DNA from: Octopus vulgaris
Taxonomy: Eukaryota
Length of the DNA stretch: 64,000 nt
NCBI GenBank assembly: GCA_951406725.2
Contig: OX597817.1
Coordinates: forward strand, 49,476,001 to 49,540,000
Reading direction: 5' to 3'
The notes under the pieces are model-generated. The model was not told where the DNA came from. It was given only the letters and a program-made list of their open reading frames with translations, and ran no database searches. The position numbers were made by a program, and so were the translations under genes. Numbering within the stretch: the first letter of the stretch is position 1; each line of letters begins with the position of its first letter. Shown here piece after piece: positions 30,238 through 53,214 of this stretch.

Positions 30238-30496
30238 AATCCGTGTAACATCGCCTGTAACGCGGAAGAAAGGAAGATAAACAAGTAGAGGAGCCTGTGT
30301 GTGTCAGTCGCCGTCGATACCTCAGATATCACGGGCTTTCGCGTAGTGAGACGCAAACCAAAACCACGTATTCGGGAAATGAAAATAAGCACACAGCTAT
30401 GCTTCATACAATTCTATGTTTATGAGATGGGGAATTATGTATATTATTTACATTATTTACATTTGACGGATATTTGTCCTCATCTTGTTTGTTGTT

Positions 30497-30542
30497 AACA
30501 CAACGTTTCGGCTGATATACCCTCCAGTTTTCATCAGGTGTT
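30497..30542 (-). ncRNA. minimal type I hammerhead ribozyme motif
   Basis: AACAC-CTGATGA-AAACTG..CAGCC-GAAA-CG-TT-GTGTT. Perfect 5-bp stem I, palindromic AACGTT stem III, two mismatches in stem II. Confidence 0.75.
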
Positions 30543-30608
30543 TTGGGGAAATTTCGAACCTGGGTCCTCATTCCTAAGGTATTTTTCGATGCTGCTGTTG
30601 TTATTATA

Positions 30609-30674
<66 letters not shown>

Positions 30675-30678
<4 letters not shown>

Positions 30679-30753
30679 TCACTGCCTGGGATCGAACTCG
30701 GAATCTTGGGGTTAGTAGCACGCGCTCTTAGCCACTACGCCATATGCCCGTGA
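30675..30753 (-). promoter_or_regulatory. tRNA-derived head with internal Pol III A and B boxes
   Basis: A box TGGCGTAGTGG (30733-30743), B box GAGTTCGATCC (30689-30699). Confidence 0.75.
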
Positions 30754-30755
30754 CT

Positions 30756-30842
<87 letters not shown>

Positions 30843-30901
30843 GCAACAATAACGTTGAAAAATACCTTAGGAATGAGAAACCAGGTTCGAAATTTCCGCA
30901 A

Positions 30902-30947
30902 GCCACCTGATGAAGGCTGGAGGGTATATCAGCCGAAACGTTGTGTT
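30902..30947 (+). ncRNA. minimal type I hammerhead ribozyme motif
   Basis: GCCAC-CTGATGA-A-GGCTG gagggtatat CAGCC-GAAA-CG-TT-GTGTT. Perfect 5-bp stem II, stem I CAC/GTG. Confidence 0.8.
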
Positions 30948-31478
30948 AACAACAATCAAGATGAGAGCAAATATCCGTCAAATGTAAATAATGTAAACAA
31001 TGTACAACTATGCTCAGTAATTTTGGCGGAAAATAGATTTTATCTTTCTCAGGTTGACAATATTTATATTGCTATTGCATCATAATCTTAACAAGAACAT
31101 AATGGCATCATGTGATGCCAAGTAAGTTGTTTGTGTCAATATCTAATTTAGAGGAATGCGACCCGGACTTAACTAATAGAATAACTTTGTCTGCATATTC
31201 GGAAACGATAAGTTTTACACGATGTAAAAATCCTGTTTAGACAATGGAAGGTTAAAGTTTGGAAATTTATCTGTTTATTATTTTTATTTATTTGTCATTA
31301 GATTGCGGCCATGCTGGATCATCGCTTTGAATGATTTAGTCGAACAAATCAACACCAGGACTTATTTTGTCTTTAAGTCTGGTACTTACTGTATTAGTCG
31401 CTTTTAGTTAAGTTACGGGGATGTGAACAAACCAGCACCGGTTGTCAGTCACAAAGACCACATACACACATACATACA

Positions 31479-35753: not shown

Positions 35754-35870
35754 ATTTACAGCCATATCACGTTGAAAGCACCGATTCTCGTCCCATCACC
35801 GAAGTAATCAACGTCGAGCCTAGTTAGTACTTAGATGGGTGACCGCTTGGGAAACCCAAGTGCTGTAAAC
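35754..35870 (+). pseudogene. dispersed 5S rRNA copy, probably a pseudogene
   Basis: GCCATATCACGTTGAAAGCACCG...AGTACTTAGATGGGTGACCGCTTGGGAA. Helix I TTTACAGC/GCTGTAAA; T5 at 35872-35876; altered A-box region. Confidence 0.85.
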
Positions 35871-36142
35871 GTTTTTAAATAGGTGCAGGAGTGGCTCTGT
35901 GGTAAGTAGCTTGTCTGTGTTTGTCTCCCCAACATCGCTTGACAACCGCTGCTTGGTGTGTTTACGTCCCCGTAACATAGTGGTTCGGCAAAAGAGAAAA
36001 AATAAAATAAGTACTAGGCTTACAGAGAATAAGACCTGGGATCGATTTGCTCGACTAAAGGCGGTGCTCCAGCGTGGCCGCAGTCAAATTATTGAAACAA
36101 ATAAAAGAATAAAAGAAATATATATATATATATATATATATA

Positions 36143-51226: not shown

Positions 51227-52379
51227 ATGTTGTTGTCGTCGACGTTTGCTCAAAGCCACGAAGGTGCGCAGCTTAGTAGTTAGGGTATTTGGCTCACGAT
51301 CGTAAGGCCGTGGTTTCGATTCCCGGTGGCACATTGACACCTTGAGGAAGACATTTTATTTCACGTTGCTCCAAATCTTTCAGCTGGCAAAAATAAGTAG
51401 TACTGGTTGTTCAAAGAGTCAGCCTTGTTGCATTCTATGTCGCGGTAAATCTCCCTGAGAACTACGTTAACGACATGCGTGTCCGTGGAGTACTCAGCCA
51501 CTTACATGTTAATTTCACAAACAGGCTGTTCCGTTGGTGGAGCTAACTGGAACCTTCGTCGTCGTAACCGACGGAGTGCCAGTGTATAGATCCAGGTTGG
51601 CCCTGATCGAGTATTGTAGCTTTCTAATGAAAAGCATACCGGCCGTGTGGAATAGAGAGAGCATGTCATTGATGAGGTCGTGAGTAGTGAACTTTAACAA
51701 ACCTAGTTGACTGACTGATTGACAGAACAATTAATCAAACGATTGATTAGTTTATTGGTTAACCAATTGACTAATAATAATTTCAAATTTTGATATAAAG
51801 CCACCAATTCTAAAAGAGGGAGAAACTCAATTACATCGACCCAACTATTTGACTGGTACTTTATCGACCCCGAAATGATGAAAAGCAAAGTCGTTTTCGG
51901 CGGCATTTGAACTCAGAACGTAAAGCTGGAAGGAACGCCGATGAGCACTTTAGCATGCTTCTACAAACTCGCCGCCTTGATCAAATTACTAATAATATTA
52001 AAAAAGTGAACTAAAACCAGTGCATGTGTTTATTATTGACATAATGGCCCTCCCGAGATAGAACAAAGTATATAGTAATATTAGGAAGAAAATACCTTGC
52101 AACATTTAGTCAAACCATTTTACGTTTGTACGTTCTTAGTTCCCATCTTACAGAGGTTAACTTTCTCATTCGTATTCTTAGATCAGTTAAAACACATATA
52201 TGTCTTCCCTTTATTTTGACGCTAAGGTGTGATTTGAGCTTACTGTATCTATTACGATGAGTTGCATATGTATTCTTCATATGTTCTGGCAGATTCGGAT
52301 GTGAAAATGCTAATCGCAGTTATGTTTCGTCACAGGAGATCATCTCTTTTTACGACGAATATATTTCCATCACACTTTC

Positions 52380-52454
52380 GATTCGTTTTACAAGGGACTT
52401 CGGGACACCCATTGTTTCAATATTATTCCCTCTCGTCAGTCGGACTATTGAATC
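52380..52454 (-). ncRNA. type I hammerhead, copy 1
   Basis: CTGACGA (52433-52439), GAAACA-ATGGG-TGTC with GUC at 52404-52406; base of stem II is G.U. Confidence 0.75.
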
Positions 52455-52547
52455 TAACAGGATTTCGAGATTCTTGTTTATAACTTGTACCAATCAATAA
52501 TAACATATCATTAATAATAACGACGAATATATTTCCATCACACTTTC

Positions 52548-52622
52548 GAATCATTTTACAAGGGACTTTCGGGCACCCATTGTTTCGACATTATTCCCTC
52601 TCGTCAGCCGGACTATTGAATC
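52548..52622 (-). ncRNA. type I hammerhead, copy 2
   Basis: CGG-CTGACGA-GA...TC-GAAACA; the cleavage triplet has lost its U. Confidence 0.7.
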
Positions 52623-52712
52623 TAACAAGATTTCGAGGTTCTTGCTTATAACTTGTACCAATCAATAACATATTATTAATAATAACGACGAATATATTTC
52701 CATCACACTTTC

Positions 52713-52787
52713 GATTCATTTTACGAGTGACTTTCGGACACCCATTGTTTCGACATTATTCCCTCTCGTCAATCGGACTACTGAATC
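52713..52787 (-). ncRNA. type I hammerhead, copy 3
   Basis: TTGACGA (C3U), intact GUC, perfect distal stem GATTCA/TGAATC. Confidence 0.7.
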
Positions 52788-53214
52788 TAACAAGATTTCG
52801 AGGTTCTTGTTTATAACTTGTACCAATCAATAATAACATATTTAGTGGTTCAAGTGACCACATGGACATGGACTTGTTGATTCCACGTCACAGACATTTG
52901 TTCGTGTTATTGTCGTCTTCTGTATCTGTGATATGCTATTGTTGCTCATAATATTATAAATGGTTGTTGGTGTTCTCGAGGCTCTCGCCACTATTCTTGA
53001 CATTATTGTTGCATTTTATTTTTTGCCTTTTATTTGTTTCAGTCATTGGACTGCAGCCGCGTGTGCTTCCAGTACCTAAATTTCTGAAGTCGGATATTTA
53101 TTCTGTCGCGCTCTTTTGCTGAACCACCAAGTTCAGGGGACGTAAACAAAGAACACCTGTTGTCAATTGGTGGTAGTGGGTGGGGTCAATTACACATACA
53201 CACACCTATATATA

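Follow-up and report, generated by a model that had tools for sequence, protein, structure and literature searches.

How did a tRNA-like head, a trinucleotide microsatellite and a hammerhead ribozyme come to lie side by side in a Penelope-type palindrome in the genome of Octopus vulgaris? The region described here spans positions 30382 to 31016 of the window, by which we mean the whole 64,000-nucleotide stretch of contig OX597817.1 that was analyzed, and its relatives were sought in the genome (2.8 Gb in 227 contigs). The original prediction took the combination for a new class of ribozyme-bearing SINE. With a probability of roughly two in three, we instead read it as a short inverted pseudo-LTR (pLTR) insertion of an autonomous Penelope/Poseidon element that has a tRNA-derived A/B-box motif just upstream of its ORF start, the short copies likely deriving from RNA initiated by Pol III.

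On the minus strand, the locus begins with the tRNA-derived head (30676-30749; A box, 30742-30732; B box, 30699-30689) and proceeds through an (AAT)n/(AAC)n tract (30591-30675), the length of which differs between copies, into a body (30438-30590) that family comparison identifies as the pLTR 5′ leader and the start of the ORF. The body contains a minimal type I hammerhead (30497-30542; core at 30537) whose stem III is a 4-nt palindrome of the dimer type, with a predicted cut after 30502, between 30502 and 30501. The inverted arm on the plus strand (30750-31006) holds the final head bases, the microsatellite and the body (∼30854-31006) but no tail, and it includes a second minimal hammerhead (30902-30947; core at 30907) with one mismatch in stem I. 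All of these parts had been predicted, and each was found in place. The two arms are 87% complementary over 237 nt and join at 30750-30752, where three bases match both the pre-head sequence of the element and the start of the inverted arm, a microhomology that may have guided the joining.

Other details needed correction. The one-sided tail on the minus strand is real, but it ends at 30407 and not at 30411; its 31 nt (30407-30437) correspond to ORF codons ∼45 to 55 and continue into the remaining ORF in long copies. The first run of four T residues (T4) on this strand does lie at 30385, as proposed (30382-30385), but it belongs to flanking DNA, 22 nt beyond the end of the element, and the family itself lacks a terminator. 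The "complementary lesions" of the two hammerheads are likewise real when compared with 150 to 160 family arms (AA replaces GG in stem II of the left hammerhead, and C replaces A in stem I of the right one), and they reveal the ancestral state; as they are on opposite strands, they cannot complement each other within one RNA, and we rejected a functional role for them. A feature absent from the original prediction is a direct repeat of 10 and 9 nt that flanks the insertion on the plus strand (30397-30406 and 31008-31016, the right copy being one base shorter), which the sequence and the scoring of family pairs mark as a probable target-site duplication.

To place the locus in its family, we counted exact 28- to 34-mers genome-wide. 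The head was matched 1,936 times and the ribozyme 1,690 times, with no matches to reversed controls, so the anatomy of the locus is not a product of chance. In four samples that left out the window's own locus, the head was followed by the body, in order, at 24/29, 23/30, 22/29 and 20/30 loci, while 4, 4, 5 and 9 loci, respectively, had no partner within 700 nt. The predicted linkage of head and body therefore holds across the family. Although a few heads lack a nearby body (4/29 and 4/30), this linkage, together with the fixed position of the head behind an ORF (see below), refutes the idea that a SINE merely landed beside a Penelope fragment at this one locus, and we give that reading next to no probability. 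Some heads stop in the (AAT)n tract without a body (L033, L045, L055, L058, L258, L260 and L266), and in L055 and L266 one and the same other repeat adjoins the tract; such loci may represent either insertions into the tract or mobilization of the head and (AAT)n alone. The spacer upstream of the head had 596 exact matches (reversed control, 0). Given the exact-match rates in copies chosen on other grounds (head, 3/85; ribozyme, 9/90; spacer, 22/55), we roughly estimate ∼10^4 arms or more and ∼1,500 ORF-linked ends.

At three head loci, the upstream coding sequence translated as the end of a GIY-YIG domain, and we used it as a query for further loci. The head stands directly after the stop of an ORF encoding reverse transcriptase (RT) and GIY-YIG in 27 of the 30 loci selected by the endonuclease (EN), the other three retaining its first bases, and, among loci selected by protein and extending to the ORF end, it follows the ORF in 17 of 18. 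The order of the unit is ORF stop, 29-nt spacer, head, (AAT)n, ORF start with hammerhead, and tail. Two loci, L091 and L133, display the full layout (body, tail, an ORF extending ∼2.3 kb beyond the tail, spacer, head, (AAT)n, body and tail), L133 being arranged as pLTR-ORF-pLTR-tail, and L130 and L134 have a tandem junction that runs from ORF end through head and body to ORF start. All 30 loci recovered when we sought a second Penelope family in the genome as an internal control belonged to this same family.

The single ORF contains an RT domain (RVT_1 match; E = 5.8e-8), and a profile of its homologues matches telomerase RT among others (E = 1.7e-5). Translations read by motif place a CCHH-type GIY-YIG domain with two Cys between the motifs at the C terminus, its residues Y, C, C, Y, H and H being nearly invariant (alignment A1); Pfam GIY-YIG gave no match on the L091 fragment, and no extra zinc finger was seen by eye between RT and EN. 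The closest homologues of the protein are 60 to 69% identical to it, and no relative was found among viral contigs. RT and GIY-YIG mark the ORF as that of an EN-positive PLE, probably of the Penelope/Poseidon type. The ORF copies that we examined are broken or truncated. Many of the ORF-containing copies have large internal deletions (L117, L118, L120, L123 to L128, L137, L138, L140 and L144) with scattered breakpoints, which suggests frequent template jumps by the RT. In L028, both arms run into identical non-element sequence in inverted orientation.

The same ORF accounts for the body and the tail. A frame that opens with the ATG at 30571 (codons 1 to 55, 30407-30571, minus strand) crosses the ribozyme and the tail into the ORF. 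Copies L134 and L141 keep this frame with scattered stops and match the homologue P0019 from residues 15 to 18 through 194, whereas several other copies are frameshifted in the region; in P0019 itself, the peptide encoded across the ribozyme core recurs at the N terminus. Frame continuity and this shared peptide identify body and tail as the start of the ORF. The locus is thus a short inverted insertion of the pLTR of an autonomous element and not a SINE with a borrowed Penelope tail. The Penelope-type terminus is borne out by the inverted arm, the one-sided tail, the target duplication and the pLTR layout, and an autonomous PLE with the same terminus exists; unlike the partner of a tRNA-derived SINE, which would lack the head, this one carries the whole unit. 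The head belongs to the autonomous element and is no addition peculiar to a SINE, and the body is coding sequence; a separate SINE class is unlikely.

Database tools did not recognize either of the two small-RNA components. The head received no tRNA call from ARAGORN or Rfam, and ARAGORN at a low threshold yielded noise only. Compared with true tRNAs of the same genome, the head scored z ≈ 7.5 to 8 against shuffles, with tRNA-Arg the best of the 27 sequences (8 tRNA types only) that were used. Both boxes are intact although the cloverleaf has decayed. The hammerhead had no Rfam match, and the folding z-scores of the monomer were not significant (−0.1, 0.0 and −1.4), as expected for dimer-type hammerheads; core and stems are present, the stems being intact in the natural copy L228, and cleavage of the dimer type is predicted.

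We then examined where copies end. The 3′ ends of arms are bimodal, near body positions 140 to 158 and 182 to 184, which is ∼64 and ∼95 nt past the predicted ribozyme cut. An RNA ending at the GUU site, as originally predicted, is therefore rejected as the template. Ends beyond the cut imply that uncut RNA was copied, as in Poseidon of Anolis carolinensis (PAc), where cDNA is described to start internally on uncut RNA (PMC11167929). Among 59 two-arm pairs, with four loci represented twice, 47 have the tail on a single arm, 9 on neither and 3 on both, and 58% reach a target-duplication-like score of at least 7, compared with 7% of mismatched flanks. Nonmajority variants common to both arms number 0.64 per pair versus 0.23 between insertions, which fits a common template for both arms.

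The 5′ ends pile up at the head. As a sample unbiased for upstream sequence, we used contig 1 and its first 30 exact matches to the head: 28 of them begin within −18 to +16 of the first G of the head (26/28 after collapsing two duplicated pairs), and the remaining 2 run into the ORF. The first upstream bin lost 5 of the 30 copies, and further upstream only 0 to 3 copies are lost per 35 nt of the 13 to 25 at risk (∼6% per 35 nt), so the short copies are not random truncations. Loose contig ends in four public runs with three organism labels (all contigs, none recorded as RNA) pile up at −7 to +4; break-offs are commonest at −7, and two of the four runs have them at +1 as well. Fold-back at a short palindrome inflates the number of ends at −11 to −18, the overall spread being ∼35 nt, while copies without fold-back keep 2 to 4 bases upstream of the head. 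A and B boxes of this kind make up type 2 Pol III promoters. The pile-up and the loose ends thus support the predicted transcript start at the head, and the sequence pattern points to Pol III as the likely initiator.

The sharp edge might have other causes: Pol II could initiate within the pLTR, an activity of the RNase P type could cleave the tRNA-like fold, or the 5-bp palindrome could provoke snap-back, and the A and B boxes would then be relics. Many junctions do fall at the palindrome (−7), and as the upstream edge is itself a short palindrome, it could favor snap-back. The one studied Penelope promoter, that of Drosophila virilis, is internal to the pLTR, LINE-like and TATA-less as described (PMC2377424), and for autonomous partners, Kojima considers transcription by Pol II obligatory (PMC10886601). 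On the other hand, processing by RNase P sits poorly with boxes that stay intact while the cloverleaf decays; if the tRNA fold blocked RT, the block should lie at the 3′ side of the fold; the bases retained by non-fold-back copies precede the head; and the ORF is poor in T4 runs (see below). We consider such an origin of the edge unlikely and retain a start by Pol III as the better account of the short copies.

Could the short copies nevertheless be an independent, self-propagating Pol III SINE that a Penelope RT mobilizes in trans? They retain both promoter boxes and outnumber ORF-linked copies ∼10-fold or more (596 spacer matches at a rate of 22/55 versus 1,690 ribozyme matches at 9/90). We compared 29 long (ORF-linked) heads with 89 short ones, both samples being biased by selection. 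No variant is fixed in one class, each variable site has its two alleles represented among long and short copies alike, and no separate non-autonomous lineage emerged. There is a modest allele shift at head position 64 (G in 64/89 short versus 13/29 long heads; P = 0.002, partly a selection effect), and the short copies look slightly younger (5.4% versus 8.2%, in biased samples), suggesting that the source masters were not identical. The autonomous element itself carries the head, which speaks against such a SINE. So does the limit of the short copies at the tail, since PAc is described as needing ∼55 nt beyond the RT start sites (PMC11167929), a requirement that may apply here by analogy. Internally deleted copies that keep the post-tail region have scattered breakpoints, for which reason we rejected a single internally deleted source for them; a non-autonomous master shared by the copies did not appear. 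These sequences accordingly do not show an independent SINE lineage, and we regard it as quite improbable compared with by-products of the autonomous element.

Whether Pol III might read the ORF as well is a separate matter, which arose post hoc from the visual observation that 2.6 kb of L091 lack any T4. The 73,351 nt of family copies, in which some loci figure twice, contain 30 runs of T4 or longer, and such a run falls in the same 5-nt bin in at most 3 of ∼30 copies; runs that are not shared are explained by later mutation. Against synonymous resampling, 18 T4 were observed in 38,727 nt where 64.9 were expected, and the expectation per 2.5-kb ORF was 4.1 to 6.1 (Poisson P(0), 0.017 to 0.002); Markov nulls were weaker (P(0), 0.00 to 0.19). 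As controls, 55 PLE frames of at least 900 nt from 80 metagenome loci contained 451 T4 versus 409 expected, none having zero, and zero T4 occurred in 1 of 54 control matches of at least 1.5 kb. The depletion counts as a single observation, coming from one family with an A-rich strand. T4 is only a moderate terminator for Pol III. Behind the ORFs of other PLEs, tRNA boxes gave one weak match in the 80 metagenome loci, 35 of which had the full 900 nt downstream. The absence of shared T4 is a hint that Pol III may transcribe the coding RNA too. We therefore entertain, tentatively and as somewhat less probable than its negation, an autonomous coding retrotransposon transcribed end to end by Pol III from a captured tRNA promoter, whose 2.5-kb ORF would have been purged of T4 and whose one transcript would give rise to the complete element as well as to SINE-shaped by-products in their thousands.

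The likely sequence of events is as follows. A SINE-like insertion of tRNA plus (AAT)n into the 3′ UTR probably gave rise to the head. Pol III would start a few bases before the head and encounter no terminator in the pLTR. The RT/GIY-YIG protein would nick AT-rich DNA, and cDNA synthesis would begin internally on uncut RNA, by analogy with PAc, at one of two sites ∼31 nt apart. Priming in the first tail would give the short form, and priming in the last tail of a read-through RNA would give ORF-containing copies. For the second arm, cDNA synthesis could either snap back or be primed again, with the same RNA or a sister molecule as template, and the arms would be joined at microhomology.

Several parts of this architecture are shared with known PLEs, the structure of which has been described (PMC8557442 and PMC4209133). 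Like PAc (PMC11167929) and the D. virilis Penelope (PMC2377424), the octopus element has a single ORF with RT and C-terminal GIY-YIG, a pLTR from partial tandems with an inverted 5′-truncated arm, a one-sided tail of 30 to 40 nt inside the ORF start, a hammerhead motif overlapping that start and a pLTR that would hold the promoter of the downstream copy. In PAc, the ORF is reported to begin in the ribozyme and the tail to lie between two internal RT start sites (PMC11167929). Peculiar to the octopus element in this comparison are the tRNA-derived A/B-box head and (AAT)n in the pLTR, the start of most copies there and the T4-depleted ORF. The D. virilis Penelope, with its LINE-like promoter, also has an intron (PMC2377424), whereas the octopus element needs none.

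Nor is the pairing of ribozyme and Pol III promoter undescribed. The schistosome SMalpha/Sjalpha repeats combine a Pol III-type promoter and a type I hammerhead in a short dispersed SINE-like element, and SMalpha tandems are reported to be released by cleavage into monomers that lose the promoter (PMC6765202 and PMC8490949). Octopus copies, in contrast, keep the promoter, extend past the cut and lie within a coding element; they are solo or palindromic, with few of the head-to-tail ribozyme tandems that mark SMalpha and retrozymes. Animal non-LTR retrozymes, described as PLE derivatives (PMC7229834 and bioRxiv 10.64898/2026.07.22.740005), and short non-autonomous Penelope and Chlamys elements (PMC8557442 and PMC6685494) resemble them as short noncoding, pLTR-related copies dependent on the PLE protein; in the accessible descriptions of both groups (the same four sources), no tRNA promoter is mentioned. 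The TRIMp3 elements Cassandra, Helenus and Ajax have a small-RNA-derived Pol III promoter in the terminal repeat, for which SINE insertion is the proposed origin, but they are non-autonomous LTR elements, whereas the octopus terminal repeat belongs to a protein-coding PLE (PMC10886601).

Precedents thus exist for Pol III SINE-like elements with a ribozyme and for non-autonomous Penelope derivatives, and what appears to be new here is a tRNA-type promoter motif inside the pLTR of an autonomous Penelope, not a new SINE class. We found no description of such a promoter in the accessible literature; Repbase, Dfam, subscription papers and supplements were outside its scope and may already hold the family. 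The accessible part of the octopus repeat annotation gives many unclassified SINE and Penelope families without such a link (PMC13282606). How PLEs are transcribed, where their RNA starts and how tail and inversion originate are largely open questions, on which this family bears through thousands of copies that point to a single 5′ end of the RNA and to two sites of RT initiation. Should Pol III read the ORF, the element would be an exception among autonomous retrotransposons, which as a rule use Pol II (or ride on Pol I), and it would have to be explained how its RNA, being uncapped, is translated. The family also illustrates how repeats shaped like SINEs can come about without any separate SINE, so some catalogued tRNA-SINEs may be Penelope pLTRs.

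Further repeats occur in the window. At least two units of a 165-bp tandem at 52352-52841 (2.9 copies; 92% matches) contain minus-strand cores resembling a hammerhead, and the tandem is possibly an array of the non-LTR retrozyme type. A second, unrelated minimal-hammerhead-like repeat lies at 37862-37839 (minus strand) and recurs in L065 and L119; it has a T-rich body adjoining a microsatellite and is probably another PLE-related family. A dispersed 5S rRNA-like copy is located at 35754-35871 (76.9 bits).
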